IMG/VR virus record: IMGVR_UViG_2706794671_000006
Source: a virus
Taxonomy: Duplodnaviria; Heunggongvirae; Uroviricota; Caudoviricetes
Length of the DNA: 64,000 bases
Direction: 5' to 3' (one strand)
The notes below the pieces were generated by a model that was given only the letters and a program-made list of their open reading frames with translations, was not told the DNA's origin and searched no databases. Made by a program: the position numbers and the translations under genes. Shown here one piece after another: positions 1 through 50,945 of the stretch; the first letter of the stretch is position 1; the number at the start of each line of letters is the position of its first letter.

Positions 1-56
1 AGGGACAGCTGATAGAAACAGAAGCCACTGGAGCACCTCAAAAACACCATCATACA

Positions 57-518
57 CTAAATCAGTAAGTTGGCAGCATCACCGCCACTTTCCAGTTCTT
101 CCACCCAGGCCTGCGGGACACTGAAATCGAGACGAAAAACCCCGATATCCCAGGTATAGCTCCCACCCTGAACAAGTTGCTCAAATGTTAAACATTGCTT
201 ACCGCTGGCGAAGTTATCGCTATTAATGCCTAACCGCTTGATAACTTCTCTTGATAAACATGTTTCTTGCGGGTTGTCTTTAACAATAATCTCATATTTC
301 CCGCGCCATTGCTTATTGACATAAATATCGATGTCATACTGCCCCGGTAAGGGTTGATTATCATCAAGACGAATATTTGCAACCTGCTGGTCTTTCATTC
401 CACCTATCATAAAATGGGTATCAAAGGTTTCTTCAGCTGCATAAGCTTCAATGCCGAGCAATAACGCTACGATTGCTGATGCAAGTGGGGTCATTCTCAA
501 CATAGGCAGCTCCTGCAA
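57..518 (-). CDS. yehB: fimbrial outer-membrane usher, N-terminal 153 aa only (premature TAG; probable pseudogene or frameshift)
   Basis: Starts immediately after the chaperone gene in a subunit-chaperone-usher operon next to yehE-mrp-metG; ushers are ~800 aa but this frame stops at 57-59. Symbol assigned by gene order only. Confidence 0.5.
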   Translation of the reverse strand: MQELPMLRMTPLASAIVALLLGIEAYAAEETFDTHFMIGGMKDQQVANIRLDDNQPLPGQYDIDIYVNKQWRGKYEIIVKDNPQETCLSREVIKRLGINSDNFASGKQCLTFEQLVQGGSYTWDIGVFRLDFSVPQAWVEELESGGDAANLLI

Positions 519-1193
519 TTAAATTTTGTCACTAATATAGTTGCCATGGTCATCGATAATGGTCAGATGCCAGTTATTTGCATTATTACTTTTGACATTA
601 ACACTCTGACTTTCTAAGGGGGCAATCATAATAGTTTCATAATTGACTTTGACATTATTAGCTTTGACATCCGAAATCGTCACCCAATTAGCTGAGTCAT
701 TTTTTATCACCAAACCATTGCCACTGCGATTTACCAGCAATTTTTTAAATGTCGCTTTATTTACCGGAGCAATACCCGCTGGTCGGTAAAACAACTTAAT
801 TCTGTTTTGCATCGCAAACTTCAGTGCATTCTTACCTTCTTGCTCTGGACTATTTGGTGGAATATCCAGAACATTCAGATAAAAAATGCTTTCTTTATTA
901 GTGGGCAGTTTATTCGGCATAATTTTGATTTTTACTTGCTGCCCGGAATTTGCCCCTATTTTTGCCACTGGTGGCGTTAACATGAAAGGAACCTGAATTT
1001 TTTCTGGTGGTAATGACGTATCGCCATCATCAATCCACGCCTGCAGCAGCGAAGAACGGTTTCCCTGGTTCATCAACTGCACCATCACTTCTTTATTTTC
1101 TGCCGGGTAAATAATGCGCGTCCCGTAGATAACAATTCCGGCATGTGCAGGAAGGACCATAGAAAAAATGAGTAAAGATAATAATCCTTTCAT
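519..1193 (-). CDS. yehC: fimbrial periplasmic chaperone (PapD-like)
   Basis: Signal peptide MKGLLSLLIFSMVLPAHA, chaperone-like sequence; start moved to internal ATG (1193) preceded by AAGAGG RBS. Confidence 0.8.
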   Translation of the reverse strand: MKGLLSLLIFSMVLPAHAGIVIYGTRIIYPAENKEVMVQLMNQGNRSSLLQAWIDDGDTSLPPEKIQVPFMLTPPVAKIGANSGQQVKIKIMPNKLPTNKESIFYLNVLDIPPNSPEQEGKNALKFAMQNRIKLFYRPAGIAPVNKATFKKLLVNRSGNGLVIKNDSANWVTISDVKANNVKVNYETIMIAPLESQSVNVKSNNANNWHLTIIDDHGNYISDKI

Positions 1194-1215
1194 TTTAATG
1201 CCTCTTAAATTAAAA

Positions 1216-1237
1216 GGCCGCCATGGGATAGCGGCCA
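1216..1237 (-). terminator. GC hairpin (GGCCGC...GCGGCC) between fimbrial subunit and chaperone genes, attenuator-like
   Basis: Inverted repeat followed by T-run on the minus strand, directly 3' of the major subunit gene. Confidence 0.35.
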
Positions 1238-1272
1238 TGTTTATTACCTGGAGAAACTTACAATTTTATTTA

Positions 1273-1815
1273 TTAATCCTGCGCCACACGCATAACCAGA
1301 GAAGATAACACATCACCTGATTGCACTGAGTTATCTGTCAGTTTCAGGTATTTTGCTTTAAACGGAATAGCATATTGACCTTCCGCTGTTTTATAACTCT
1401 CAATGTTAAAAGGTGCAGAAACATCCAGGACATCGCTGTTATCACCTAAATAGAGATAGTAACCCACGGTATCGTTGCTACTGGCTATCGCCTTATCGTT
1501 ACCGGTTATTTTATCGTTGGTAATCAACGAGAGTTTTACACCAGCAACTTCTTTCGGGCAGCTAATTTTTAACATGCTGCTGGTTACACCGACTGCATCA
1601 TCATAGGTAGAATATTTAGCTTTACCTTCAAAGACAGTGGTTGGTACAGTCGGCATATTAATACTTACTGAATCACCACCCGCTTCGAATTTACACGGAG
1701 ATTCTGCAATATTCCCCTTAATAGTTAATGTTCCGGTATCAACGTCTGCAGCAAATACTCCAGCGCTCATAAAAAAAGAAGAAAAGACAGCGGCAGCAAT
1801 AATTGAACGTTTCAT
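1273..1815 (-). CDS. yehD: fimbrial major subunit
   Basis: 180 aa, signal peptide, fimbrial subunit-like sequence, first gene of the operon. Confidence 0.8.
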   Translation of the reverse strand: MKRSIIAAAVFSSFFMSAGVFAADVDTGTLTIKGNIAESPCKFEAGGDSVSINMPTVPTTVFEGKAKYSTYDDAVGVTSSMLKISCPKEVAGVKLSLITNDKITGNDKAIASSNDTVGYYLYLGDNSDVLDVSAPFNIESYKTAEGQYAIPFKAKYLKLTDNSVQSGDVLSSLVMRVAQD

Positions 1816-2057
1816 AATATGTTCCTTAATAAAATTTTTTTTTGGTTGTTAAGAGTCTGTATCTCTTGGAAACAAATTTCTCACATCAAAAAAGTTACCG
1901 CAATGTAAACACATTGTTTTATTTATTTGAAACAAATTAACCATTGCAATATAAATACAACAAATATTTAAGAGTATTAACTATTTATCGCATCTATCAA
2001 TTAATGTAGATTTATGTAAATGGTATTGTTGATATCAATAAAAATCAGGTTGCCAAA

Positions 2058-2339
2058 TTAATCGTAGCGATTTAACACGATTCGACGTTTGCTATCGCTA
2101 CCTGCAACAACCACTTCTGTCGTTACACCTTTGACGGGCGAAGAAAACAGATGACGGGTGTCAACATTATACGTTAACTGACCACAATGCGGTTGAGGTT
2201 GACCATTAACCATAGCCATACTGCATGTTGGGGGACTGATCCTGCCATTAATCGCTAATGTGGCAGTCTCTGAAGAGAATGCGGGAGAAGCCAATCCATA
2301 GGCAAGAAAAATAATTCCTGACAGCCAATACTTATTCAT
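2058..2339 (-). CDS. yehE: small secreted protein, YehE-like
   Basis: 93 aa with signal peptide, located between fimbrial operon and mrp as in the yeh locus. Confidence 0.5.
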   Translation of the reverse strand: MNKYWLSGIIFLAYGLASPAFSSETATLAINGRISPPTCSMAMVNGQPQPHCGQLTYNVDTRHLFSSPVKGVTTEVVVAGSDSKRRIVLNRYD

Positions 2340-2583
2340 TGAAGGTTATGCCTGGATAGAATGAGTGCATAACAAACTATAGCTGTACATCCACTACACA
2401 GCCACGAAGGATGATAATGAAGCATTGCCTGTATGATCAATCGACTTTGTAGAGTTTCGGACGAAGGTCCGCAGAATATTCGCAGTATTAAATAAGTGTT
2501 CATTAATGCGGCAAAAACTAATACACCGCATCAATGTAACATCTCTGCGGTGTATGAAGAATAACCAGAATGGTTAATAGGCG

Positions 2584-3693
2584 TTAGACCGCGCGGAAGG
2601 AAATCTCGCCTGGAATGACTTCACCCTGCCAGTAGAGCTGAGCTGCAACGCGGTCAGCCAGCTGGCGGTAGATAGCGGTAAATTCGCTCTCCGGACGGCT
2701 GATAACCGTTGGCGTGCCTTTATCGAGATCCTCACGTAAGGAGATGTGTAACGGCATCTGCCCCAGCAGCTGTGTGTGGTATTTTTCAGCCAGTTTCTCT
2801 GCACCACCGGTACCGAAAATCGGTTCATGGTGACCACAGTTACTGCAAATATGCACACTCATGTTCTCGACAATACCAAGCACCGGAACCTCGACTTTCT
2901 CGAACATCACAATGCCTTTTTTCGCATCGATCAAAGCGATGTCCTGCGGGGTGGTGACCACGACTGCACCAGTTACTGGAATGTTTTGCGCCAGCGTCAA
3001 TTGAATGTCACCGGTGCCTGGCGGCATATCAAGCACCAGATAGTCGAGATCCGGCCACAAGGTTTCCTGCAACATCTGCATTAACGCCTTGCTCGCCATC
3101 GGTCCACGCCACACCATCGCATTGTCGTCAGTGACCAGATAACCAATTGAATTGGTTGCCAGGCCATGAGACATAATCGGTGCCATATGGGTACCGTCCG
3201 GCGAAGTTGGACGCTGATTTTCTGCGCCCAGCATGGTGGGAATTGATGGGCCGTAGATATCGGCGTCCAGAATGCCGACTTTCGCCCCTTCCGCCGCCAG
3301 TGCCAGCGCCAGGTTTACCGCCGTGGAGGATTTACCCACGCCGCCTTTACCGGAACTGACCGCAATGATGTTCTTCACACCATTAATACCCGGCTGATTC
3401 TTCACGCGTTTTAAGGTGGCGATATTGTGCGACAGTTTCCAGTCGATAGCTTTCGCCCCGGTGATACGCAGCAGTTCGGCGCTACATTGCTCTTTTAACT
3501 CTTCAAACGCGCTATGCCAGACGAATGGCATAACCAGTTCCACATGCAACGTGTCGTCCATCCAGGCGACATGGTGCAACGCGTTCAGCGTGGTGAGGTT
3601 ATGCTTCAGGGTTGGGTGCTGAAAATTGGCCAGTGTCCCGGCGACCATTGCGCGCAAGGCTTCTGGTGATTTGGCCTGGGATTGTTCGTTCAT
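2584..3693 (-). CDS. apbC: Fe-S cluster carrier ATPase Mrp/ApbC
   Basis: Walker A SSGKGGVGKSS, CxxC motif (CSNCGHH); start set at MNEQ with AAGGAG RBS. Confidence 0.9.
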   Translation of the reverse strand: MNEQSQAKSPEALRAMVAGTLANFQHPTLKHNLTTLNALHHVAWMDDTLHVELVMPFVWHSAFEELKEQCSAELLRITGAKAIDWKLSHNIATLKRVKNQPGINGVKNIIAVSSGKGGVGKSSTAVNLALALAAEGAKVGILDADIYGPSIPTMLGAENQRPTSPDGTHMAPIMSHGLATNSIGYLVTDDNAMVWRGPMASKALMQMLQETLWPDLDYLVLDMPPGTGDIQLTLAQNIPVTGAVVVTTPQDIALIDAKKGIVMFEKVEVPVLGIVENMSVHICSNCGHHEPIFGTGGAEKLAEKYHTQLLGQMPLHISLREDLDKGTPTVISRPESEFTAIYRQLADRVAAQLYWQGEVIPGEISFRAV

Positions 3694-3824
3694 CCCGACT
3701 CCTTTTTTGTATAGATAAACCATCAGCTGATAGTTTACCTGAAGAATATAGAGAAGTACTTACTTAACATTTTCCCATTTGGTACTATCTAACCCCTTTT
3801 CACTATTAAGAAGTAATGCCTACT

Positions 3825-6220
3825 ATGACTCAAGTCGCGAAGAAAATTCTGGTGACGTGCGCACTGCCGTACGCTAACGGCTCAATCCACCTCGGCCATA
3901 TGCTGGAGCACATCCAGGCTGATGTCTGGGTTCGTTACCAGCGAATGCGCGGCCACGAGGTTAATTTCATCTGTGCCGACGATGCCCACGGTACGCCAAT
4001 CATGCTGAAAGCACAGCAGCTTGGTATCACACCGGAACAGATGATTGGCGAAATGAGTCAGGAACATCAGACTGATTTCGCAGGCTTTAACATCAGCTAT
4101 GACAACTATCACTCGACGCACAGCGAAGAGAACCGTCAGTTGTCCGAGCTTATCTACTCTCGCCTGAAAGAAAACGGTTTTATTAAAAACCGCACCATCT
4201 CACAGCTGTACGATCCGGAAAAATGCATGTTCCTGCCGGACCGTTTTGTAAAAGGCACCTGCCCGAAATGTAAATCCCCGGATCAATACGGCGATAACTG
4301 CGAAGTCTGCGGCGCGACCTACAGCCCGACTGAACTGATCGAGCCGAAATCGGTGGTTTCTGGCGCTACGCCGGTAATGCGTGATTCTGAACNNNNNNNN
4401 NNNNNNNNNNNNNAATGAGTCAGGAGCATCAGACTGATTTCGCAGGCTTTAACATCAGCTATGACAACTATCACTCGACGCACAGCGAAGAGAACCGCCA
4501 GTTGTCAGAACTTATCTACTCTCGCCTGAAAGAGAACGGTTTTATTAAAAACCGCACCATCTCTCAGCTGTACGATCCGGAAAAAGGCATGTTCCTGCCG
4601 GACCGTTTTGTGAAAGGCACCTGCCCGAAATGTAAATCCCCGGATCAATACGGCGATAACTGCGAAGTCTGCGGCGCGACCTACAGCCCGACTGAATTGA
4701 TCGAGCCGAAATCGGTGGTTTCTGGCGCTACGCCGGTAATGCGTGATTCTGAACACTTCTTCTTTGATCTGCCCTCTTTCAGCGAAATGTTGCAGGCATG
4801 GACCCGCAGCGGTGCGTTGCAGGAGCAGGTGGCAAATAAAATGCAGGAGTGGTTTGAATCTGGCCTGCAACAGTGGGATATCTCCCGCGACGCCCCTTAC
4901 TTCGGTTTTGAAATTCCGAACGCGCCGGGCAAATATTTCTACGTCTGGCTGGACGCGCCGATTGGCTACATGGGTTCTTTCAAGAATCTGTGCGACAAGC
5001 GCGGCGACAGCGTAAGCTTCGACGAATACTGGAAGAAAGACTCCACCGCCGAGCTGTACCACTTCATCGGCAAAGATATCGTTTACTTCCACAGTCTGTT
5101 CTGGCCTGCCATGCTGGAAGGCAGCAACTTCCGCAAGCCGACCAACCTGTTTGTTCACGGCTATGTGACGGTGAACGGCGCGAAGATGTCCAAGTCTCGC
5201 GGCACCTTTATTAAAGCCAGCACCTGGCTGAATCATTTTGACGCTGACAGCCTGCGTTACTACTACACTGCGAAACTCTCTTCGCGCATTGATGATATCG
5301 ATCTCAACCTGGAAGATTTCGTTCAGCGCGTGAATGCCGATATCGTGAACAAAGTGGTTAACCTGGCCTCCCGTAATGCAGGCTTTATCAACAAGCGTTT
5401 TGACGGCGTGCTGACAAGCGAACTGGCTGACCCGCAACTGTACAAAACCTTTACTGATGCCGCTGAAGTGATTGGCGAAGCATGGGAAAGCCGCGAATTT
5501 GGTAAAGCTATCCGTGAAATCATGGCATTGGCTGACCTGGCTAATCGCTATGTCGATGAACAGGCTCCGTGGGTGGTGGCGAAGCAGGAAGGTCGCGATG
5601 CAGATCTGCAGGCGATTTGCTCTATGGGCATTAACCTGTTCCGCGTGCTGATGACGTACCTGAAACCGGTACTGCCGAAACTGACTGAACGTGCAGAAGC
5701 ATTCCTGAATACAGAACTGACCTGGGATGGTATCCAGCAACCGCTTCTGGGCCATAAAGTGAATCCGTTCAAGGCACTGTATAACCGTATCGATATGAAA
5801 CTGGTGGAAGCACTGGTGGAAGCATCCAAAGAAGAAGTGAAAGCCACAGCTGCACCGGTAACTGGCCCACTGGCTGACGAACCGATTCAGGAAACCATCA
5901 CCTTTGACGACTTCGCCAAAGTTGACCTGCGTGTGGCGCTGATTGAAAACGCGGAGTTTGTCGAAGGTTCTGACAAACTGCTTCGCCTGACGCTGGATCT
6001 CGGTGGTGAAAAGCGTAATGTCTTCTCAGGCATCCGTTCCGCTTATCCAGATCCACAGGCACTGATTGGTCGTCACACCATTATGGTGGCTAACCTGGCA
6101 CCACGTAAAATGCGCTTCGGTATCTCTGAAGGCATGGTGATGGCTGCCGGTCCTGGCGGGAAAGATATCTTCCTGTTAAGCCCGGATGCTGGTGCTAAAC
6201 CTGGCCACCAGGTTAAGTAA
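3825..6220 (+). CDS. metG: methionyl-tRNA synthetase, frame interrupted by scaffold gap and duplicated flank
   Basis: HLGH motif (SIHLGHM), KMSKS motif, zinc knuckle CPKC...CEVC, C-terminal tRNA-binding domain; ORF track splits it at the N run. Confidence 0.9.
4052..4754. repeat. ~340 bp of metG present on both sides of the gap (approx 4052-4392 and 4414-4754), ~97% identical
   Basis: Both flanks encode [18 protein letters not shown]...PVMRDSE; 9 nucleotide differences, 8 synonymous, 1 Cys/Gly (EKC vs EKG). Confidence 0.85.
4393..4413. other. run of 21 N (assembly/scaffold gap) inside metG
   Basis: Literal n characters in the sequence. Confidence 0.99.
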
Positions 6221-6240
6221 TTAAACAACCTCTCTTCGCA

Positions 6241-13512: not shown

Positions 13513-14034
13513 TTAAAACGGAAGGATTCGTTCAACCCAATCGAAGAAAATAAGTATTTTTCTACCGTCTTCCAACTTAAGTGTGACTAGACAGGCGTCA
13601 ACGCCATCTGACGTTCCCTCAATTTCGCGACCGTCTGCCATGTAGACCCTTATAGATTTGCCGTTTTGGTAAGCCTGACGACATATCTTAAAAAAGTCAC
13701 GACGTGATGGCTGATTAACCATCTGTTCATTGTTTAGCGTTAGTCGACCTGTGAATGAAGTGTCAACCTCTTCTATGCCCGACTCAATTGTGCTAATGCG
13801 CTCAAGAGGGAGCCTTATACGATTTGTGTTGCTAAGCGGATCTGGTGTGAGGTTCAGCTTATTTCTTGCGCTCAATAGCCCGTAGACATACATGCAAAAC
13901 ACTTGGCCGTCTTCGAGAGTGACTCTTACAGGAAATTTTGCACTCCGCCAGAAGAGCAAGGTACGTTCAGCATGTTCGTAGTCTCGCGGCCATACTTCAG
14001 CCGGTATGCCGTAGGTGATGTCCAATGTTCTCAT
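13513..14034 (-). CDS. hypothetical cytoplasmic protein, translationally coupled to upstream secreted-protein gene
   Basis: 173 aa; ATGA start/stop overlap with 14031-14624. Confidence 0.55.
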   Translation of the reverse strand: MRTLDITYGIPAEVWPRDYEHAERTLLFWRSAKFPVRVTLEDGQVFCMYVYGLLSARNKLNLTPDPLSNTNRIRLPLERISTIESGIEEVDTSFTGRLTLNNEQMVNQPSRRDFFKICRQAYQNGKSIRVYMADGREIEGTSDGVDACLVTLKLEDGRKILIFFDWVERILPF

Positions 14035-14805: not shown

Positions 14806-15084
14806 TTACGGCAGTTTGCTTAGAATTTGCTCTAAATCTTCCTTTGTCATATTAGAGTTCTCATAGATGCGCATGATTTTCTCACGAGCCTTAGCAGAGA
14901 CTCCAACGGCAGATGAAACTTTGTCAAATTCAGCCATCGTCATCGTCTCCAGAATGGTATTGATAACTTCAGCCTTAGACATTTTGATGTTTTTTTCTTT
15001 TAGTTTCATTTGAAACTTTCCAAGTTTGTCATTGGCCTTATCGGACAATGCCACCTGACAATAAGTTGTTTTCTTTTCGCTCAT
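14806..15084 (-). CDS. hypothetical small protein downstream of helicase
   Basis: 92 aa ORF starting 3 nt after the helicase stop. Confidence 0.5.
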   Translation of the reverse strand: MSEKKTTYCQVALSDKANDKLGKFQMKLKEKNIKMSKAEVINTILETMTMAEFDKVSSAVGVSAKAREKIMRIYENSNMTKEDLEQILSKLP

Positions 15085-15086
15085 AA

Positions 15087-16646
15087 CTAATCTCGTTTCA
15101 GAACTCCAAAATCGAATGCGCCATCAATAGGCAATACACCTTCTGCAAAGCCAGGTGTGGTGTCGATGATGTGTTTTCGCTCATAAGAGTGAGACAACAG
15201 GTATTTGTTGCTAATGTCAATGAAATCAGTGATAAAACACACGTTTGCCTGATTCTTCTTGGCTCGTAAGCCACGACCGACACGCTGCCTCATTTCAACT
15301 TCTGCTTTCCCACCACCAGCAAGAATGACCGCACCAACGCTTGGCACATCAACACCGACATCCAGAATAGTCGAGCCTATTAAAACATCTATTTCTCCAG
15401 ACGCTAAACTGTTCAGCTTTGCTTGCCTTGTCGCCTGGTTAGATTCCCCATAGATGAAGTCAACTCTAAGGCCGGACTCTTTCATCATTTCCATCAGGAT
15501 TTGCCCGTGGCGTTTAAGGCGAACCAGAGTCATACAATTGAGAGAATGTTGCTTATAGAGCAATGCTTCGCGCACAATGGCCTCGTTACGTCCCAAATTA
15601 TACACGATCCCCAACTGATAAGCCTTTTGGTAGGCGGTGCTCATACCAACTCTAAAATTGAGGTGTTTGTTGGCAAGTTCGGCCTTGATTCTGGCCTCGT
15701 CTGGCTTGTAGGCAACTTTATGATAAAGGAAGTACGGCTTTGCCAGAATGCCTCGATCAATCAGATACTTTTCTGTGACTTTAATTTCAATTCGCCCGGC
15801 CACCGCCATCAGGCGCATGTTGGCTTCCGTCGAATCCTTCATGAACGGCGTGGCTGTAAGCGCCAGACGATAGTCTGCGTTCACACATAATCTGGCGATG
15901 TCATAGAAATTTGAGCCTGAAGACTCATGCGCCTCTTCCAGAATAAGAAGAGAGACACTTGAAAGGAAGCGTTTCACCAACTCCCGACGTTTGAGGTGGT
16001 AGCTTTTCTTATCTGGTGTTGCATCGCGTGGTGGTTCTTCGAGGAAACTTGCAAGAGTTTGAACTGTAGCGACGTTGATATGTCGTGATACCTGGAACTC
16101 ACCCGAGCCAATGACTCCAACCTTTTGGTCTTTTAACCACGGTTCGCCATTTTTGGCGCGGTAGTCGATGGATCTCTGGAAGTTTTCGGCCATTTGAAAC
16201 ATCAGAACAGAGCGGGTTGTTAAAAATAATGTCATTCGACCGATACGTGCAGCTGCTTTGCAGGCAACGTTAGATTTCCCGCCACCAGTAGCGATCTGCG
16301 CAATCATCATTCCCTCTCGAACCAGTGTTTCCACAGTCTGATCCTGATACGCATAATCAGGATTGTATGGGAATGGGTTAACCGCCGGATTTGGTTTACC
16401 AAGCGCCGGGGCTTTGTCTTTGCGGATATGAACACATTTGATGCCCGCCTTGTTCAAATTAGCCGCCACGGGCTTGGCAAAGCCAGCAGGGAACGAGTTT
16501 TTGCTCCAGTTGAACATTGTGCTTGTGCCCTTCCAGTCGCCAGCCTCGACTTCGTAGCTCAACATTTGCTGCACCAGTTGCTTTACCTTGTCATCTGCGC
16601 CAGAAATAAGCGCATTTACTGCGTTAGATACAATCCGAACAGTCAT
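15087..16646 (-). CDS. SF2 DExH-box helicase
   Basis: Motif I ATGGGKSNVA, motif II LEEAHE, motif III TATP, motif VI QRVGRGLRA. Confidence 0.8.
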   Translation of the reverse strand: MTVRIVSNAVNALISGADDKVKQLVQQMLSYEVEAGDWKGTSTMFNWSKNSFPAGFAKPVAANLNKAGIKCVHIRKDKAPALGKPNPAVNPFPYNPDYAYQDQTVETLVREGMMIAQIATGGGKSNVACKAAARIGRMTLFLTTRSVLMFQMAENFQRSIDYRAKNGEPWLKDQKVGVIGSGEFQVSRHINVATVQTLASFLEEPPRDATPDKKSYHLKRRELVKRFLSSVSLLILEEAHESSGSNFYDIARLCVNADYRLALTATPFMKDSTEANMRLMAVAGRIEIKVTEKYLIDRGILAKPYFLYHKVAYKPDEARIKAELANKHLNFRVGMSTAYQKAYQLGIVYNLGRNEAIVREALLYKQHSLNCMTLVRLKRHGQILMEMMKESGLRVDFIYGESNQATRQAKLNSLASGEIDVLIGSTILDVGVDVPSVGAVILAGGGKAEVEMRQRVGRGLRAKKNQANVCFITDFIDISNKYLLSHSYERKHIIDTTPGFAEGVLPIDGAFDFGVLKRD

Positions 16647-16692
16647 AAACCTCTTTCCTTAGTGCCTTTTGTATGTTATTTGGCTATTATAA

Positions 16693-16710
16693 TAAGTAAG
16701 TGATTACTTA
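16693..16710 (+). promoter_or_regulatory. motif B palindrome TAAGTAA-GTGA-TTACTTA in divergent promoter region
   Basis: Perfect 7-bp arms; sits between the divergently transcribed helicase and ParB-like genes. Confidence 0.45.
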
Positions 16711-17409
16711 GTGGATTGTAGCAATAAAATGGACGTAAAAATCACGATTTTGCAGGTTGATGTTGCCAACCTTCGCCCGAATACCTGGAACACCAATTCG
16801 GTTGGTGCGCAGAATTTCGAAAAACTGAAAGGTTCTATCGAAAAATTGGGCTTTTTTAAGCCAATTTTGGCTCGTGAACTTGAAGATGGATTTTTTGAAA
16901 TCCTCGGCGGCGAACATCGCTGGCGTGCCGCTATTGAGCAAGGAATTTCAACGGTTCCAGTGCTTTCTGTGGGCAAAATTAGCGATGTCGTAGCTAAACA
17001 GATGTCACTGGTGGACAACGAGCGATACGGTGAAGACGACCAAATCGCATTGCAACGCTTCATTGAAGAAATTCAGTCAGAACTTGACTATCAACTGTCT
17101 GAAATCGCCCCGTATGACGACGAAATCTCGATGGTTTTAGCAAAAGAGGCGGCAATCGACCTTGAAGCACTGGAGGCGTTGTCTCGTGGTAGTGATGAGC
17201 CTGTCGATACCGACAAACGAGAGAAAACCGAACGTGTCGGTGCGGAACATCAGACCATGCGCTTCAAAGTAACCTTCGATGCGTCAGATCGCGTTGCAGA
17301 AACCATAAAAAACATCATCAAAGACCAGGCAATTAATACTGGCAATGAAATGGAAAACGCTGGTGAGGCTCTAGTGTGGCTGGTCGACTACTACAAGGAG
17401 CGTATGTAA
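16711..17409 (+). CDS. ParB/Srx-like nuclease-domain protein
   Basis: ParB box-like LGGEHRWRAAIEQGISTVPV; acidic C-terminal half. Start (GTG 16711 or ATG 16729) uncertain. Confidence 0.7.
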   Translation: MDCSNKMDVKITILQVDVANLRPNTWNTNSVGAQNFEKLKGSIEKLGFFKPILARELEDGFFEILGGEHRWRAAIEQGISTVPVLSVGKISDVVAKQMSLVDNERYGEDDQIALQRFIEEIQSELDYQLSEIAPYDDEISMVLAKEAAIDLEALEALSRGSDEPVDTDKREKTERVGAEHQTMRFKVTFDASDRVAETIKNIIKDQAINTGNEMENAGEALVWLVDYYKERM

Positions 17410-18077
17410 TGACCAAAAAGTTTGAAATCGTATATCGCGACCCGGCAGATCTTATTCCCTATGAGATGAATGCCAAAAAGCATGATGAACAGCAGATCAG
17501 AGATCTGGCCGCAGCCATTAAAAAGCGCGGATTTGACCAGCCAATTACGGTCGATAAGAACGACGTAATTATTACTGGCCACGGCCGCCGTGAGGCTGCA
17601 ATTTTTGCTGGACTTGAGCGTGTACCGGTTATTGTTCGCGATGATCTCAGTGATGACGAGGTTCGTGCGAAGCGCCTTGAAGATAACCGACTTGCCAGCA
17701 TTGATTACGATGCAATTAAGCTACAGAAAGAGCTTGAGTCGCTTGTTCTGGACGATATCGAGGTTTTCGGCTTTGAAGAGCGTGAGTTGAATGTTCTCGT
17801 TGGCAGTATGACAGAAGAAATGGACACCGACTCGCTAGTTATCGATCTTAGCGAAGAAACTAAACGACAGAAGGATGAACACACCGAGATCAGTCGTGAA
17901 GTTGCAGCGGAAGAAGTACGTGTTGTCGACGTATTGGGCTTTAAAACTCTCCCTGCTGGCTCTGCCATTGTTGTTGGTGATTTGCTTGCCCATATGGAAG
18001 AAATGACGGGAGAAAGCGGGGTAGACGCATTTGTGGCATATGCGGAGAAGATCTCTTCCGGGGAGATGGCTGCATGA
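17409..18077 (+). CDS. second ParB/Srx-like domain protein
   Basis: ITGHGRREAAIFAGLERVPVIV motif; TAATG overlap with upstream gene. Confidence 0.65.
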   Translation: MTKKFEIVYRDPADLIPYEMNAKKHDEQQIRDLAAAIKKRGFDQPITVDKNDVIITGHGRREAAIFAGLERVPVIVRDDLSDDEVRAKRLEDNRLASIDYDAIKLQKELESLVLDDIEVFGFEERELNVLVGSMTEEMDTDSLVIDLSEETKRQKDEHTEISREVAAEEVRVVDVLGFKTLPAGSAIVVGDLLAHMEEMTGESGVDAFVAYAEKISSGEMAA

Positions 18078-18739
18078 GCAAATACAACATCAACGTATCG
18101 TTTCAGACACGCGTAAATAAAACCACGCGCACGTTGGAAATCGCTGAGTCGTTCGGGCTTGGCCTGGACGAAAAAGAGTGGACGCTTTACGACAATCTGG
18201 AGCTGGAAGTGAAGCAGGGCGATGTGGTGTACATCACCGGCCAATCCGGTTCCGGCAAATCCGTTGTGCTGCGCGAGTTGCAACGACAGATGAAGGATGA
18301 AGGGCTGTCTGTAGCCTCCATCGATGATTTTACCTTCGATAATGAGGTTAACGTCATCGATCAGTTGGGCAAAACGACCAGCGATGCGCTTGGGTTGTTA
18401 TCTATGGCTGGTCTGAACGATGCATATCTGTTTGTTCGCAAGCCTTCTGAAATGTCAGACGGCCAGAAATATCGTCTCAAGATTGCCAAACTGATTGAGT
18501 CAGGCGCTAAAGTGTGGGCTGCTGACGAGTTCGGTGCTGTTCTAGACCGTGTAACCGCTCAGGTTGTGGCATCTAACCTCCAGCGTGCCGCTCGAAAGGT
18601 TGGTGCGACGGTAATGGTGGCGACGACTCACGAAGACCTGAAGAACGCGCTGCGCCCGGATATGCAGATCACCAAGCACTACAAAGAACGCGTGAAGGTG
18701 GAATATCACAATGGTAGTCATGATGAGGTCCATTTATGA
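18074..18739 (+). CDS. small P-loop ATPase with ABC-like signature
   Basis: Walker A GQSGSGKS, signature-like SDGQKYRL, Walker B VWAADEF. Confidence 0.6.
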   Translation: MSKYNINVSFQTRVNKTTRTLEIAESFGLGLDEKEWTLYDNLELEVKQGDVVYITGQSGSGKSVVLRELQRQMKDEGLSVASIDDFTFDNEVNVIDQLGKTTSDALGLLSMAGLNDAYLFVRKPSEMSDGQKYRLKIAKLIESGAKVWAADEFGAVLDRVTAQVVASNLQRAARKVGATVMVATTHEDLKNALRPDMQITKHYKERVKVEYHNGSHDEVHL

Positions 18740-19626
18740 CGGACATCATCATTAAACGCTACCGCCCTGAAGAGTTTCCGCGTCATCTGGACTTTCTGGA
18801 GCGAATGACTGTTACAAAGGGAACTGTAGAGGACTGGCACGCTCTTAAGTCGCTTCACTACAAAACAGACGGCAAACCTTTCGCGCCAACTTACTATCGC
18901 TGCGAACTTGATGATCGTCTGGTGGGCGTCGTGGTTATGGCTTACCCGAAACTACTGTTGGCACCTCGCCACCGCATGTTTCCTAAGTTGAAACCAACCA
19001 CTAATACCACCGTGGCTAACCAGTACTGGGGTCGGTACGTGAATAACAACTTTGCGGTGATCAGTCGCTCAGTTGTGGATACTCAGTATCGTGGCGTAGG
19101 CGTCTCTTATCGAATGATTAACCTGGTTAGCAGGATGCATGACCGGCCAATCATTGAGATCCAGTCCTCGATGAGCAAATACAATCCCTTCGCCATGAAA
19201 GCAGGGTTTAAGTTCATCCGCCCTGAGCGACCGAAGAGCTATGAAAGTGCACTGCGTGTATTCCAGCGCCATTTCCGTTCCGACACGGGTGATAACGAGG
19301 CGATCGTCAAAGAGTTGTTCGCAATGAGCGAGTCTCGTCGTCGCCGTGCACTGCGTGATCTGGTGGCGGACTACCACAAGAACAGTTCCCTGGCAAAAGC
19401 TGGGCGGAATCGTGGCACGACGATTCAGGACATTGCCGACAGTCTGGTGGACGAGGCCAGCATTGTGAAGCTGCTCAAGGACATTCACAACCTGAGCTTT
19501 ACGTCTCCGTTGTATGGTGTGTATCGAAACCCTGACTTTGGTCGTCGACTGCCTGACACGCTGCCATTGCTGGCATTCGACAAACAACCTTTGGATAAAC
19601 CGTTAGAAATTGCTTTACCGGCATAA
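18736..19626 (+). CDS. GNAT-like acetyltransferase-domain protein
   Basis: Motif-A-like VVDTQYRGVGVSYRMINLV; fold not verifiable by eye. Confidence 0.4.
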   Translation: MTDIIIKRYRPEEFPRHLDFLERMTVTKGTVEDWHALKSLHYKTDGKPFAPTYYRCELDDRLVGVVVMAYPKLLLAPRHRMFPKLKPTTNTTVANQYWGRYVNNNFAVISRSVVDTQYRGVGVSYRMINLVSRMHDRPIIEIQSSMSKYNPFAMKAGFKFIRPERPKSYESALRVFQRHFRSDTGDNEAIVKELFAMSESRRRRALRDLVADYHKNSSLAKAGRNRGTTIQDIADSLVDEASIVKLLKDIHNLSFTSPLYGVYRNPDFGRRLPDTLPLLAFDKQPLDKPLEIALPA

Positions 19627-19635
19627 GGATTTGCC

Positions 19636-19902
19636 ATGACGTTAACCGATAAACAAAAGGACATCATCAAAACGCTCAATCTCGGTTATGAGCGAGGTCA
19701 TCTACTTGACCTGGACGAATTGCTTGAAGTTTTGCCGTACAAGACAACCAAGCAAAGTATCCAGTTCTCAATTCGCGCTCTGATAAAAAAGGGGCTGGTG
19801 GAGAAAGGGCATACGCGCCAACGCAGTGACAATCGCTATCACCGCCGAACTCTTGGGTTAACCACTTTAGGTCGAGCCAAAGCGAAGTTACTGGTGATGT
19901 AA
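19636..19902 (+). CDS. hypothetical small protein (possible winged-helix)
   Basis: 88 aa ORF; weak HTH-like segment. Confidence 0.4.
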   Translation: MTLTDKQKDIIKTLNLGYERGHLLDLDELLEVLPYKTTKQSIQFSIRALIKKGLVEKGHTRQRSDNRYHRRTLGLTTLGRAKAKLLVM

Positions 19903-19933: not shown

Positions 19934-19981
19934 CTGTATATATAAATAATAAGTAACTTATTAAATATATACGGAAGCAGG
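19934..19981 (+). repeat. ~47 bp direct repeat, copy 1 (TGTATATATAAATAATAAGTAACTTATTAAATATATACGGAAGCAGG)
   Basis: Near-identical copy at ~50815-50862; contains palindrome AATAAGT-A-ACTTATT and TATAAATA. Confidence 0.75.
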
Positions 19982-20016
19982 CTTCGTAAGACATGCCAGA
20001 CCTAATTAAACACCCC

Positions 20017-20059
20017 AGAAAACAAGTTGGTTAGCAGATGCAGTAAACAAGTTGTTTTA
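20017..20059 (+). promoter_or_regulatory. two adjacent motif A copies (GAAAACAAGTTGGTT and TAAACAAGTTGTTTT) upstream of terminase operon
   Basis: Followed by hairpin AGAGCGC-ATGGAC-GCGCTCT and the AGAGGGA RBS of the 20098 gene. Confidence 0.45.
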
Positions 20060-20097
20060 GAGCGCATGGACGCGCTCTGTGTGTTTTAGAGGGATCT

Positions 20098-20730
20098 ATG
20101 ACGGTCGAAAAAGACGAGGTAAAAACTCGCCTGACACCAGCGGAGTGGGCCGAAGCTGAAGCCAAATGGACGTCAGGCGAATATACACTCTCAAAGCTGG
20201 AGGAAGAGTACGGCATTCGTCGTGAAACACTCTCCAGACATTTCAAAAAGCGAGGATTAGAGAAAGGCGCGGACTCTGTTGGGAAGATGGTTCGTGAGTC
20301 TCTTAAATCTGACGCAGAGCTTCGCGCTAAAGCCCGTGCGGAAAAGATAGAAGAACGTCGTACACGTTATGACGGCTGGGCGTATGCGTTGGGGCAGATG
20401 GTGATGGTCGAAGTCACTACGGCCAAACGTGAGGGTAAGCCTTTAGGGGCGATTGAGGATTCTCTCAAGAGCTTACAGAGAGCCAGTAATACCCTTGCAA
20501 AATGCTTTGAAGTTTCGTCCAAAGCATTGGGCATGGATCATGCGGAAAATGACGAGGAAGAAATTCCGAACCTGGTATTTGGTGAGCTTACGCCTTCCCA
20601 GGTGGCGAAATTACGTCAGGAAGACGACGAGCCTGAAATCATCGATGACGAATTGCTTGAGACGTTGGAAGAAGAAGCTCTAAGCGAATTTGATGCGACA
20701 GATGATGGAAGTGAAGGGGAGGACAAATAA
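20098..20730 (+). CDS. terminase small subunit (putative)
   Basis: 210 aa, N-terminal HTH-like segment, acidic C-terminus, immediately upstream of large terminase. Confidence 0.5.
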   Translation: MTVEKDEVKTRLTPAEWAEAEAKWTSGEYTLSKLEEEYGIRRETLSRHFKKRGLEKGADSVGKMVRESLKSDAELRAKARAEKIEERRTRYDGWAYALGQMVMVEVTTAKREGKPLGAIEDSLKSLQRASNTLAKCFEVSSKALGMDHAENDEEEIPNLVFGELTPSQVAKLRQEDDEPEIIDDELLETLEEEALSEFDATDDGSEGEDK

Positions 20731-21986
20731 TGGCAATCCCGTCCTCGCTCAGTCTTGTGCAACTGCATTCTGGACAGATGAAAGTCTTCCAGTCTCCGCA
20801 TCGATTTAAAGTTGTTTGTGCTGGTCGACGCTGGGGAAAATCCCGGTTGTCGATCTCCACTATTATTCGTGCGGCGGCAAAGGAAAAAAAGCAAAGGGTC
20901 TGGTATGTCGCTCCTACTTACCAGATGGCTCGCCAGATTTTGTGGGACGATCTACAGGAAGTTCTGCCTCGTAAGTGGGTTAGGAAAAAGAACGACACCA
21001 CGATGACAATCGTGTTGAAGAACGGTTCGGAGATCGCCCTCAAAGGTGCTGATAAGCCTGACACTCTGCGCGGCGTAGCGTTGCATTTTGTAGTGCTTGA
21101 TGAATTTCAGGATATGAAGGCTGACACCTGGTACAAGGTGTTACGACCTACTCTTTCATCGACACGCGGCGGTGCACTGATCATTGGTACGCCAAAAGGC
21201 TTCTCGGAATTTCACAAACTGTGGACTATAGGCCAGAACGTAGAGCTGCAAAGAAAGGGACAGTGGAAGAGCTGGCAGTTTGTAACTGCCGATTCTCCGT
21301 TTGTACCTACGGCGGAAATTGAAGCTGCTAAGAACGATATGGACCCCAAATCGTTCGCTCAGGAGTACCTGGCCAGCTTTGAGAACATGTCCGGGCGCGT
21401 TTACTACCCGTTCGATCGTAACGTGCATGTAAAACCGCTTCAGTTCAACCCTCGGTTGCCTATATGGGTAGGGCAGGACTTCAACATTGACCCGATGTCT
21501 TCAGTAATTTTGCAACCTCAGCCAAATGGTGAGCTATGGGCAATTGATGAATTGGTGCTCTTTTCCTCTAACACGGCAGAAGTTTGTGATGAGCTTGAGA
21601 GACGCTTCTGGCGCTGGAAATCACAGGTAACGGTATTTCCAGATCCGGCAGGTGCTTATCGCCAACATGCTCGTGGGGAGTCTGACGTAGACATATTCAA
21701 AGAGAAGGGATTCTTACGTGTCGATTATTCGAAAAAGCACCCGCCAATTGCGGATCGTGTTAATGCTGTTAACCGAATGCTGATGTCCGCATCTGGAGAT
21801 ATCCGGCTGTATATCGATCCGAAGTGCAAGCATTTGATTGATTCACTGGAAAAAGTCATCTACAAGCCTGGAACACGAGATATGGATAAGACAGGTGGCA
21901 TTGAGCATAGTGCAGACGCATTGGGCTATCCAGTACATCGTAGGTATCCAGTCAAAAACCGTGTTATTCTTGGTGGTTCTCGATAG
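20730..21986 (+). CDS. terminase large subunit
   Basis: Walker A-like CAGRRWGKS, Walker B VVLDEFQD, C-terminal nuclease-like region. Confidence 0.85.
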   Translation: MAIPSSLSLVQLHSGQMKVFQSPHRFKVVCAGRRWGKSRLSISTIIRAAAKEKKQRVWYVAPTYQMARQILWDDLQEVLPRKWVRKKNDTTMTIVLKNGSEIALKGADKPDTLRGVALHFVVLDEFQDMKADTWYKVLRPTLSSTRGGALIIGTPKGFSEFHKLWTIGQNVELQRKGQWKSWQFVTADSPFVPTAEIEAAKNDMDPKSFAQEYLASFENMSGRVYYPFDRNVHVKPLQFNPRLPIWVGQDFNIDPMSSVILQPQPNGELWAIDELVLFSSNTAEVCDELERRFWRWKSQVTVFPDPAGAYRQHARGESDVDIFKEKGFLRVDYSKKHPPIADRVNAVNRMLMSASGDIRLYIDPKCKHLIDSLEKVIYKPGTRDMDKTGGIEHSADALGYPVHRRYPVKNRVILGGSR

Positions 21987-22012: not shown

Positions 22013-23587
22013 ATGGATTTGAACGACAAACAAATTAAGGATCTGGTGGCGCGACGCCACCCGGAATACGAAAAGAAAAAAGAACATTGGGACTTCCTCG
22101 CCAGCACTTACGCTGGCGGGCGTGGTTGGTTTACAGACAATATCTTTCGTTACTTTAAAGAGGGAGATCAGGAGTTTAAGGAGCGTGTTGAGCGTGCCTA
22201 TCGCTTCAACCACACTCGTGAGGTGGTAAACCTCATCAACAAATATCTCTTTAAAGAAGACATTCATAGAAATATCGAAGAGGCACCAGAGCAGATCCGC
22301 AATTTCTGGAAACGTGCGACTCGCCAGAATGCCTCTATTGACTCATTTATGGCCGCCATTGATTTGCAGTCGTCTATTTACGGTCGCATATGGGTTGTTG
22401 TCGATAGCACGATGAGTGGTGATGTTGAGTCAGTAGCTGACGAGAAAAAGAAAGATGCTCGCGCCTACGCCTACTGGATTTCACCTCAGCAAATGCTGGA
22501 TGTGGCATGGGACGACGACGGGAATATGTTGTGGGCGTTAATTGTGGAAGTCGCTCGTGATGACGCAGATCCTTTTACTTCTACAGGTCAGGAATACCAA
22601 CGTTATCGTCTGTGGACACAAAACGAGTGGTATCTGTTCCGTGAGGAAGTGAAGAAGGGCGCTGGTGGAGCAGGTCGCCGTCAGGCAAAAGTTATTTTAG
22701 AGGATAGCGGTGAGCATAATCTCGGCGTAGTTCCTGTGTTTCCTGTTGATTGTATTGGAGAAAGTGAATCACCGTATTTCAGCCCATCGTTGATCGATGA
22801 TATCGCTTATCTTGATCGTGCGGTTGCAAACTATCTGTCAAACCTTGATGCCATTATTCAGGATCAGACATTTAGCCAGTTGGCTATACCGGTACAGTCG
22901 CTTTTACCTGGTGATGAAAACCACACTAAAGTGCTTGAAATGGGCACAAAGCGAGTCTTCACCTACGATTCTGAAGGTGGAAACCAGCCGTTTTATCTGT
23001 CACCAGACCCGAAACAAGCTCAGATGATCATCACTACGATTAAGACGGTGATTAACGAAATCTACCATTCAGTTGGTGTAGCTGGTGAGCGAACGAAGCA
23101 GGACAACGCACAGGGAATCGATAATTCATCTGGTGCCGCAAAAATGTATGACTTCCAGCGTGTAAATAGCTTGCTTGTCACAAAAGCAGAGCGTCTGGAA
23201 AGGGCTGAACGCCAAATCATGCTACTGGTTGCGAAATGGATGGGGGTAGATCTGGACGAAGACCACTCTTTAATTGCGTATCCAGAAAGTTTCGATATTC
23301 GTGGCCTTACTGATGAATTTTCTGTTGCCGAGAAACTGTCATTACTTCAGGCACCGGACTCTGTACGTCGTCACCAGATGGAAATGCTTATTGAGAAGAT
23401 TTTCCCGAACATTACTGAGGCGATGAAAAAGGAATTTGATAAAGATCTCTTGAATTTTCCTCCAAAAAATGATCTAAATACCCTTGAAAATAAGTCAGTA
23501 CTTACTTATGATCGTGGTGCAGCCCAAGAAAGCGGGCAAGATCAACCCCGAGGGAATGGGGACTCATCTACTCAAGAGAACGAGTGA
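22013..23587 (+). CDS. portal protein (putative)
   Basis: 524 aa, directly after large terminase. Confidence 0.6.
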   Translation: MDLNDKQIKDLVARRHPEYEKKKEHWDFLASTYAGGRGWFTDNIFRYFKEGDQEFKERVERAYRFNHTREVVNLINKYLFKEDIHRNIEEAPEQIRNFWKRATRQNASIDSFMAAIDLQSSIYGRIWVVVDSTMSGDVESVADEKKKDARAYAYWISPQQMLDVAWDDDGNMLWALIVEVARDDADPFTSTGQEYQRYRLWTQNEWYLFREEVKKGAGGAGRRQAKVILEDSGEHNLGVVPVFPVDCIGESESPYFSPSLIDDIAYLDRAVANYLSNLDAIIQDQTFSQLAIPVQSLLPGDENHTKVLEMGTKRVFTYDSEGGNQPFYLSPDPKQAQMIITTIKTVINEIYHSVGVAGERTKQDNAQGIDNSSGAAKMYDFQRVNSLLVTKAERLERAERQIMLLVAKWMGVDLDEDHSLIAYPESFDIRGLTDEFSVAEKLSLLQAPDSVRRHQMEMLIEKIFPNITEAMKKEFDKDLLNFPPKNDLNTLENKSVLTYDRGAAQESGQDQPRGNGDSSTQENE

Positions 23588-50814: not shown

Positions 50815-50862
50815 TTCTGTATATAAATAATAAGTAACTTATTAAATATATACGGAAGCAGG
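50815..50862 (+). repeat. ~47 bp direct repeat, copy 2
   Basis: Matches 19934-19981 except a 2-nt TA difference; followed by palindrome GTCTTTT-AAAAGAC. Confidence 0.75.
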
Positions 50863-50945
50863 TCTTTTAAAAGACACCACCAGAACAACTCCCTTCCGTT
50901 TTCACTTCCAAAAACTGACACCAGTCGCTATCATCCGTCCATTGT

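Follow-up and report, generated by a model that had tools for sequence, protein, structure and literature searches.

A conserved ParB–ABC–GNAT gene block beside the terminase genes of an SSU5-like phage-plasmid: a candidate phage DNA acyltransferase

The gene cluster considered here lies at positions 14806 to 19902 of a 64,000-nucleotide stretch of virus DNA (hereafter, the window: IMG/VR virus record IMGVR_UViG_2706794671_000006, Caudoviricetes). A helicase gene and a small gene run leftward. Five genes run rightward: two encode ParB-fold proteins (ParB1 and ParB2), followed by a soluble ABC-type ATPase, a GNAT-fold acyltransferase, and a small basic protein; the terminase and portal genes come next. 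The ATPase and the acyltransferase, judged by their homologs, are two halves of one widespread phage protein. It is quite possible, if still short of probable, that the ParB1-ParB2-ABC-GNAT unit specifies an ATP-dependent acyltransferase that modifies phage DNA, as a locus of the "ParB-terminase locus" type. The small basic protein probably belongs to this unit. The features are as follows.

14806–15084, − strand: 92-residue protein, 3′ of the helicase gene (phrog_1466, 7e-46)
15087–16646, − strand: SF2 DNA helicase, 519 residues, XPB/UvsW-like (Pfam ResIII 1e-14, DEAD 2e-14, Helicase_C 5e-13; phrog_16)
16647–16728: divergent intergenic region, 82 bp, with a −10-like TATAAT and a palindrome
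16729–17409, + strand: ParB1, with a ParB/Srx N-terminal NTP-binding domain
17409–18077, + strand: ParB2, a second ParB/Srx-fold protein, of the "GHGR" type
18074–18739, + strand: soluble ABC-type ATPase, 221 residues, nucleotide-binding domain only
18736–19626, + strand: GNAT-fold acyltransferase, 296 residues, fold at about 20–165 plus a helical C-terminal extension
19636–19902, + strand: 88-residue basic protein, possibly winged-helix (phrog_900, 2e-45)
19934–19982: palindromic AT-rich element of about 50 bp, between the module and terS
20098–20730, + strand: TerS-like protein (phrog_867, 4e-100)
20730–21986, + strand: TerL (Terminase_6N 3e-9; phrog_2, phrog_10250)
22013–23587, + strand: portal gene, directly after TerL in gene order
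16693, 23491, 28078, 34570, 50948, 54382, 55257, and 57735 in the window: 18-bp sites of the palindrome family

The rightward genes are tightly packed. ParB1 and ParB2 share one nucleotide (TAATG), stop and start codons overlap as ATGA at both the ParB2–ABC and the ABC–GNAT junctions, and a nine-nucleotide gap leads from the GNAT gene to the gene for the 88-residue protein; terS and terL overlap as ATGG. An earlier note on this DNA had described four translationally coupled genes, and these overlaps bear it out. Its reading frames, ParB motifs, and 221-residue ATPase with an ABC signature were likewise confirmed (reading-frame check and Pfam), and its palindrome in the divergent region is present, at 16693–16710. 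The extent of that region needs correction, from about 65 bp to 82 bp: homolog alignment and GenBank place the ParB1 start at ATG 16729, not GTG 16711. The start of ParB2 is likewise corrected, to 17409.

ParB1 carries the motif GGEHRWRAA (Pfam ParB_N, 3.4e-13; phrog_723, 2.7e-79). Its N-terminal domain (about residues 1–100) is joined by an acidic linker to a small C-terminal region that is conserved (H174, R178, F179, and NAGDAL at 210–215); in alignments, the sequence past about residue 105 is a variable acidic linker followed by a conserved block of about 50 residues. ParB2 carries GHGRREAA (ParB_N, 1.4e-8; phrog_930, 4e-112), and its C-terminal half is acidic. The "GHGR" type also occurs fused to phage DNA methylases, and ParB2 matches both phrog_498 (ParB-methyltransferase; 5e-32) and the PADLOC model MTase_II (2e-17), each through its N-terminal part only. 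Conserved nucleotide-pocket boxes are found in ParB1 (N21/N23; G60-G61-x-H63-R64; D96-N97-x-R99) and in ParB2 (N21-x-K23-x-H25; G57-H58-G59-R60; N93). Judged by these residues, both proteins retain the nucleotide-binding pocket.

Both proteins match Spo0J, ParB, and Noc structures in the Protein Data Bank (PDB; 1e-9 to 1e-5 for ParB1), and the alignments are confident over the N-terminal domain alone. The AlphaFold2 model of ParB1 (mean confidence score, pLDDT, of 56) is confident for about residues 1–100 only and falls below 50 past residue 100. No confidently recognizable DNA-binding domain or helix-turn-helix was found in ParB1 or ParB2, either in the PDB alignments or in the ParB1 model, which is usable N-terminally only. 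This suggests that the two proteins, both acidic (pI 4.5), lack a DNA-binding domain.

The ABC ATPase has intact motifs: Walker A (GQSGSGKS), signature (MSDGQ), Walker B (VWAADEF), and H186 (ABC_tran, 5.6e-13). Its PDB matches are exclusively ABC nucleotide-binding domains, and 70 of its positions reach 90% conservation or more in the lineage described below, including Walker A, the signature, Walker B, the D-loop, and H186. The operon encodes no membrane protein that could serve as a membrane-spanning partner, and fused homologs bear GNAT, not a permease. An ABC transporter is ruled out on both counts, and the annotation "ABC transporter" is a misannotation because there is no membrane partner.

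The GNAT protein (pI 9.8) has its fold at about residues 20–165, followed by a helical C-terminal extension of about 130 residues. The pyrophosphate-binding loop after strand 4 reads R119-G-V-G122-V-S124 (pattern R/Q-x-x-G-x-G/A). Residues R119 and G122 do not vary among 32 sequences, and in a set of 33 from the lineage each is conserved in at least 90%. Invariance of this acyl-CoA loop and of about 60 positions points to catalysis. No curated GNAT family is matched: the best Pfam model, Acetyltransf_10 (E 0.036), reaches 14.5 bits against a cut-off of 23.6, and NCBIfam gives nothing. By its sequence, the protein is a divergent GNAT family.

How the two enzymes belong together is seen from their homologs. 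A profile of the 296-residue family, searched against 1.8 billion representative proteins, matched 881 representatives, many of them 450–500 residues long with the match at about 200–480. These fused proteins have Pfam ABC_tran at the N terminus and weak GNAT models at the C terminus. A consensus from 30 of them mirrors the window ABC and GNAT proteins motif by motif; R-x-x-G-x-G is present, reading F-R-G-I-G-L-G. Moreover, phrog_11143 matches the window ABC protein as well as the GNAT protein, and IMG names both genes "ABC-type ATPase with predicted acetyltransferase domain." Homology thus places the window pair in a fused ABC-ATPase/acetyltransferase family (COG2401-type, "MK0520"), here split. 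(Searches with the ABC protein and with the ParB1 profile were dominated by near-identical Klebsiella and Escherichia coli sequences.)

Some fused ABC-GNAT proteins have unusual forms (P0283, P0296, P0323, and P0274; loci L164 and L188). In this set are an intein with a LAGLIDADG domain within the ABC domain, a family B DNA polymerase fused at the N terminus, and a TFIIB repeat, probably archaeal, at the C terminus.

Region 14806–19902 shares 98.9% identity with Escherichia phage PhiR41_1 and 98% with phage Cyrano; identity drops to 83% with Salmonella phage SSU5 and to about 80% with Klebsiella phage-plasmids. These identities mark the window as an SSU5-like E. coli phage-plasmid. Among 5,426 complete E. 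coli genomes, 247 carry the module (16647–19902), in every case on a plasmid of about 110 kb. Homologs of the 296-residue GNAT protein (40–55% identity) are found on contigs of about 100–120 kb from many Gamma- and Alphaproteobacteria, and also in a few chromosomes.

For comparison within this lineage 33 loci were fetched, of which 30 span the block and three are cut at a contig end. All 30 spanning loci have the same order: helicase (−), then ParB1, ParB2, ABC, GNAT, (the 88-residue protein), TerS-like, TerL, and portal (+). The covered part of the other three follows this order also. Small variable genes are inserted in some members, at the ParB1/ParB2, ParB2/ABC, or ABC/GNAT junctions. The virulent Pseudomonas phage nickie (Nickievirus) has the block, as do Rhizobium RHEph10-like and Stenotrophomonas phages and chromosomal prophages. 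The ABC (about 1e-75) and GNAT (about 1e-65) proteins are conserved above TerS, and above the ParB proteins as well. Such an arrangement is far beyond chance. Because the order is kept in every spanning locus, lytic phages included, the block is neither a plasmid partition cassette nor a mobile island; conservation of this kind argues for a vertically inherited core of this large lineage of phages and phage-plasmids of about 110 kb, not an accessory defense or anti-defense cassette, the context that the earlier note had entertained.

PADLOC yielded generic partial matches only: PbeA and DpdF helicase cores, the ParB part of MTase_II, and the P-loop of mad3/mad8, with none for the GNAT protein. 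As PADLOC gave no specific multi-component match, a known defense system is ruled out, and the judgment that the cluster is no named defense system stands.

On the chromosome of Halomonas sulfidaeris (L115), the helicase, GNAT, TerS, TerL, and portal block is broken into several short reading frames, apparently a decaying integrated copy from the same phage lineage.

Beyond this lineage, fused ABC-GNAT proteins gave more than 600 matches in IMG/VR, and neighborhoods were counted in the best 80 of these loci. A TerL homolog lies directly upstream on the same strand in 25 of the 80, and within 1.6 kb in 33. Two loci (L149 and L179) have the order small DNA-binding protein, TerL, ABC-GNAT: in L179 the TerL stop codon overlaps the ABC-GNAT start and a DNA N6-methylase gene follows, and in L149 the gap between TerL and ABC-GNAT is six nucleotides. 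At other loci the fused gene overlaps or is fused to a family B DNA polymerase gene, or overlaps a family A polymerase gene; elsewhere phosphoribosyltransferase-like or methyltransferase/HerA-like genes come next. (Many IMG/VR records end exactly at the stop codon of the fused gene; this is read as provirus trimming, not a physical genome end.) None of the best 80 loci has a ParB gene within 8 kb of the fused gene by ParB profiles that do detect the ParB proteins of Gram-positive and spirochete phages; therefore, ParB is not obligatory for the enzyme.

Named phages extend the pattern. Gordonia phage Axumite begins with genes for a ParB-like protein (gene 1), ABC-GNAT (gene 2, 401 residues), a Formyl_trans_N protein (gene 3), and the terminase (gene 4). 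Gene 3 (L197, 1805–2452) overlaps the end of the ABC-GNAT gene and is annotated "tRNA-methyltransferase," yet matches Formyl_trans_N. Streptococcus prophage 315.4 has ParB, ABC ATPase, a small reading frame, an ASCH-domain protein, TerS-like, TerL, and portal, and the ParB adjoining the ABC gene matches the ParB2 profile at 2e-39. Leptospira phage LE4 has ParB-like, ABC-GNAT (366 residues), three small genes, TerL, and portal. In the Mu-like Burkholderia phage phiE255, ABC-GNAT (gp29) overlaps a formyltransferase gene (gp30; L196, 5044–5658) at the end of the tail-fiber operon, a location that recalls the position of mom in Mu. ABC-GNAT and formyltransferase look like a conserved pair in two unrelated phages, Axumite and phiE255. 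Overall, the fused protein repeatedly adjoins genes for terminase, DNA polymerase, ParB-like, formyltransferase, ASCH, and methylase proteins. The co-occurrence across phage genomes that the earlier note had thought worth examining is found, both in the 30 spanning lineage loci and as ParB–ABC(–GNAT)–terminase in Gordonia, Streptococcus, and Leptospira phages. Its placing of the module "next to" the terminase genes also stands as adjacency, but the adjacency is not incidental; it is the key feature of the module, and the linkage recurs in other phage groups.

Cassettes have been exchanged within the genus Sourvirus, to which Axumite belongs. In MossRose, of the same genus, the slot of the Axumite ABC-GNAT gene contains a different series: ParB-like, oxidoreductase, hypothetical, adenylate kinase, hypothetical, and terminase. 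Genes 1–5 of phage CaiB, which from its matching gene list we infer to be a close relative of MossRose, have been described as nucleotide-modification enzymes, including a TET/JBP oxidoreductase (PMC9302106). Therefore, ABC-GNAT is an alternative cargo of a slot that elsewhere holds DNA-hypermodification enzymes.

These observations suggest how the candidate DNA-modifying unit might work. Like other soluble ABC ATPases, the ABC domains would form a dimer around ATP and engage DNA. They would present a base or a DNA-linked amine to the GNAT active site, which would transfer to it an acyl group from an acyl-CoA. The ParB1–ParB2 pair would act as an NTP-dependent activator or loader, comparable to the ParB-like partners of phage thymine dioxygenases and of DpdA, and the 88-residue basic protein may supply DNA contact. 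Expression just upstream of terS and terL would time the reaction so that replicated DNA receives its mark before or during packaging, presumably gaining protection from host restriction. As for the substrate of ABC-GNAT, genomic context favors DNA; that ParB-like domains point to a DNA-modification context, as the earlier note had said, accords with two published accounts (PMC4738411, PMC13229309). A more specific proposal is possible but doubtful: ABC-GNAT would be a new class of ATP-dependent DNA N-acyltransferase, loaded or activated by ParB1 and ParB2 and forming, for example, N4-acetyl cytosine or N6-acyl adenine, which in some phages a formyltransferase would elaborate and an ASCH protein would read.

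Several points weigh against DNA modification, chief among them the strict conservation of the block and the absence of reported modified bases. Genes for anti-restriction modification tend to vary, whereas the block is strictly conserved in its lineage, a pattern that suits an essential packaging or replication role no less well. We know of no modified base reported for SSU5-like, Nickievirus, or RHEph10-like phages. The GNAT fold match is non-discriminating, in that protein N-acetyltransferases and small-molecule N-acetyltransferases score as high as Mom. No Mom-type family was found in Pfam, PHROG, and NCBIfam scans of the window proteins, the resemblance being one of fold only, and no base-flipping or DNA-binding domain was recognized in the module proteins. 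The slot just upstream of terminase is a general phage hot spot, so the linkage could be partly positional. Finally, the best 80 fused loci are probably related to one another, and their counts are not independent events; the lack of ParB genes at these loci counts on the same side.

It is unlikely, though conceivable, that the unit serves packaging and modifies nothing. ParB1, ParB2, and the ABC ATPase would then assemble near the packaging start or the DNA ends, where they might help TerS and TerL to initiate, condense or hand over the DNA, or protect its ends; for the GNAT domain, either a structural part or acetylation of a packaging or virion protein would be envisaged. The core is indeed strictly conserved beside TerS, TerL, and portal, and TerL is translationally coupled to ABC-GNAT in other phages. 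DNA-clamping ABC ATPases and ParB clamps are, as is generally known, established DNA organizers. The DNA itself offers a further hint. An AT-rich palindromic element of about 50 bp, ctgtatataTAAATAATAAGTAACTTAttaaatatatacggaagcagg, is present in two near-identical copies, one between the module and terS (19934–19982, followed by a terminator-like hairpin at 20058–20079) and the other at 50815–50863, where the divergent region ahead of the replication operon lies. In the GenBank entries of SSU5 and Cyrano, which are linear, the cut falls inside the first copy (at about 19964/19965), although such a cut point may be arbitrary. Against a packaging role, the fused gene also adjoins DNA polymerase genes, far from terminase; the oxidoreductase cassette in the same slot of a congeneric phage is of a kind published as TET/JBP in CaiB; the invariant GNAT residues speak for catalysis; and no packaging system generally known needs such proteins.

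Equally unlikely is an acyltransferase whose substrate is not DNA. The enzyme might act on RNA (tRNA, as TmcA does), on a host protein, or on a small molecule such as a polyamine or a nucleotide signal, in host takeover or anti-defense, with the ParB proteins as NTP-dependent regulators. Most characterized GNAT proteins do act on proteins or small molecules, the logic of ATPase plus GNAT is shared with TmcA, and the ASCH and formyltransferase neighbors also fit RNA or aminoacyl-tRNA chemistry. ParB-fold proteins, moreover, bind various NTPs and have many functions (PMC12704722). DNA is nevertheless the common denominator of the neighbors TerL, PolA, PolB, ParB, and DNA methylase. No RNA-binding domain was recognized, PADLOC gave no specific match, and core conservation in lytic as well as temperate members would be unusual for a host-specific counter-defense gene.

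The palindromes raise a further alternative. A perfect palindrome, TAAGTAAGTGATTACTTA, lies at 16693–16710 in the divergent region (TAAGTAA-GTGA-TTACTTA) and overlaps the TATAAT at 16688–16693. The pattern TAAGTAA-N4-TTACTTA (two mismatches at most) has 12 occurrences in the window, where 0.24 would be expected. Most lie immediately upstream of operons: those for tail genes; for a DnaB-like helicase, primase, and ligase; and for ParB. It is probably a phage-wide promoter or operator motif, not specific to the module, and stands as a candidate. ParB1 and ParB2 might bind these sites and control late and replication genes in the manner of KorB or VirB, leaving the ABC and GNAT proteins as passengers, but this is very improbable. 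The palindrome is over-represented at operon starts, the module's own promoter region included, and KorB is by general knowledge a ParB-family global regulator with about 12 palindromic operators (KorB is mentioned in PMC13229309). Both window ParB proteins, however, are acidic and have no recognizable helix-turn-helix, and the ABC and GNAT proteins are more conserved than the ParB proteins and are tied to them across phyla. The equivalent helicase/ParB1 intergenic regions of distant relatives have no shared palindrome, only loose TATAAG- or TAAGT-like strings.

ParABS-type partition for a prophage-plasmid state, suggested by the GenBank and RefSeq annotation of both proteins as ParB/RepB/Spo0J partition proteins and by the plasmid-prophage nature of the element, is ruled out for practical purposes, in agreement with the earlier note: no ParA gene adjoins the pair (a host-type apbC copy, 2584–3723, is the window's sole ParA/Mrp-like gene), TIGR00180 scores are 43.2 and 43.3 bits against a cut-off of 58.45, no helix-turn-helix was recognized, and the block is present in virulent Nickievirus, in phages with no known plasmid state, and in integrated prophages.

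Two neighbors of the candidate modification unit deserve separate comment. The helicase is an SF2 protein by Pfam, as had been claimed, but not strictly DExH: its motif II reads LILEEAHE, that is, EEAH. Its nearest solved structures are archaeal XPB (XPBII, 2e-12), Rad25, RecG, and T4 UvsW (5e-8). The helicase is kept in 32 of 33 lineage loci, and the gene for the 92-residue protein was detected only in the enterobacterial members (L090–L097 of the 33 fetched). Neither the helicase nor its small downstream gene is found beside ParB–ABC(–GNAT) in the Gordonia, Streptococcus, and Leptospira phages examined. The earlier note had counted both as part of the module; on comparative grounds both lie outside the functional module. 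The helicase gene is a lineage-specific neighbor, and is probably the first gene of a leftward replication/recombination operon.

The 88-residue protein is present, as described, and is basic (pI 10.2); its possible winged helix-turn-helix has weak matches only, of Sta1/Lrs14/LexA and CARF-winged-helix types. Its gene was found by phmmer after the GNAT gene in 19 of 33 lineage loci. The protein could be a DNA-binding specificity or regulatory subunit. A GNAT-toxin/antitoxin pair formed with this gene was considered and rejected: in several phyla the 296-residue protein is found fused or coupled to an ABC ATPase, and it belongs to the core of the lineage.

Other parts of the window contain features of the element at large. 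Positions 1–6221 are colinear with the E. coli chromosome (yehD, yehC, apbC, metG; 97.8%). PhiR41_1, Cyrano, and CMS-2020a match the window only from 2588 on, and each has its own copies of apbC ("MinD") and metG. At its left end the window therefore seems to pass from chromosome into phage-plasmid. Homologous recombination at apbC-metG may have integrated the element, or this may be a variant that captured a longer host segment. Within 3816–6220, metG is in two reading frames, 3816–4418 (profile positions 1–182) and 4415–6220 (71–390 plus the anticodon and tRNA-binding domains). What splits it is a partial duplication within the gene, about 110 codons long, which may be a scar of recombination.

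On the minus strand, 13513–14034 encodes a 173-residue protein matching "Repressor of phase-1 flagellin" (FljA-like, PF03614; E 1e-68), an odd gene for a phage-plasmid that could bear on flagellum-dependent superinfection or host motility. The product of 59532–61445 has DUF1737, a SASA sialate O-acetylesterase domain, and DUF6645, and is a possible tail-spike or receptor-modifying enzyme; a tyrosine integrase gene follows (61653–62756), notable because the element usually lives as a plasmid.

If ABC-GNAT does acylate DNA, it would represent a new phage DNA-modification chemistry and a second enzyme class dependent on ParB-fold proteins. SSU5-like phage-plasmids would bring the modification to about 5% of complete E. 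coli genomes, and phages of at least four bacterial phyla would have it. A conserved feature of the terminase region in phages of Proteobacteria, Actinobacteria, Firmicutes, and Spirochaetes would also be explained. Restriction evasion, phage therapy host range, and DNA-labeling tools would then be affected. If the unit is instead a packaging factor, it would be a new terminase accessory. In either case SSU5-like phage-plasmids are common in Enterobacterales and include carriers of antibiotic resistance, and present annotations of the four genes as "partition proteins" and "ABC transporters" are misleading.

Among known systems, the "ParB-Terminase large subunit locus" (ParB-Tls; Iyer, Zhang, Burroughs, and Aravind 2013) is predicted, in the description given by PMC4738411, to modify phage DNA during packaging. 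As in that description, the ParB-fold gene here is upstream of and co-oriented with terminase, an enzyme gene lies in between, and the cargo is exchangeable. The cargoes confirmed as already described are methylases and TET/JBP pathways, whereas here the cargo is a split ABC and GNAT pair of predicted chemistry only; the present module differs also in its two paralogous ParB proteins and its extra small basic protein.

One subclass of phage thymine dioxygenases works only with a ParB-like protein encoded alongside, which has nucleotide-binding and C-terminal domains and no obvious DNA-binding domain; ParB proteins (27%) and terminases (19%) are among the most frequent neighbors (PMC13229309, a 2026 PNAS study). 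The 5mYOX-ParB pairs of that study resemble the window module: a phage ParB-like protein, apparently without a DNA-binding domain, beside a predicted DNA-modifying enzyme near terminase. Unlike those pairs, the operon has no TET/JBP dioxygenase by Pfam scan, the partner is ABC-GNAT, and a fused clade does without ParB.

Insertion of dPreQ0 into DNA depends on the ParB-like ATPase DpdB (PMC12839542). There, too, a ParB-like NTPase works with a DNA-modifying enzyme, DpdA, and nucleotide hydrolysis drives modification. The enzyme is a transglycosylase there and a GNAT protein here, however, and Dpd is a host system resembling restriction-modification, not a terminase-linked phage operon. More broadly, the ParB fold also occurs fused to acetyltransferase, methylase, and ASCH domains, and it can bind CTP, ATP, or GTP (PMC12704722). 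Like ParABS proteins and KorB, ParB1 and ParB2 have a ParB/Srx N-terminal nucleotide-binding domain; they differ in being acidic, in having no ParA and no recognized helix-turn-helix or centromere-binding domain, and in occurring in lytic phages.

Two acyl-transferring enzymes provide precedents for the GNAT half. Mom of phage Mu is a GNAT-fold DNA adenine methylcarbamoylase (PDB 8bv8), so the fold is able to modify DNA bases. Family-level sequence similarity to Mom was not detected, and Mom has no ABC ATPase, ParB partner, or 130-residue helical extension. TmcA/NAT10 couples an NTPase module to a GNAT domain and acetylates RNA cytidine at N4. TmcA differs in having a helicase-like ATPase in place of an ABC one and a domain that binds tRNA, and homology to the window proteins was not detected beyond the GNAT fold.

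The literature yielded nothing relevant on an ABC-GNAT pair, on COG2401, or on SSU5 with ParB, and the 2013 ParB-Tls account is second-hand. The candidate undescribed module of the earlier note is thereby narrowed. The ParB-terminase locus class had already been described as a prediction; what is new, as far as found, is its ABC-GNAT cargo, carried with two ParB proteins and in split architecture.

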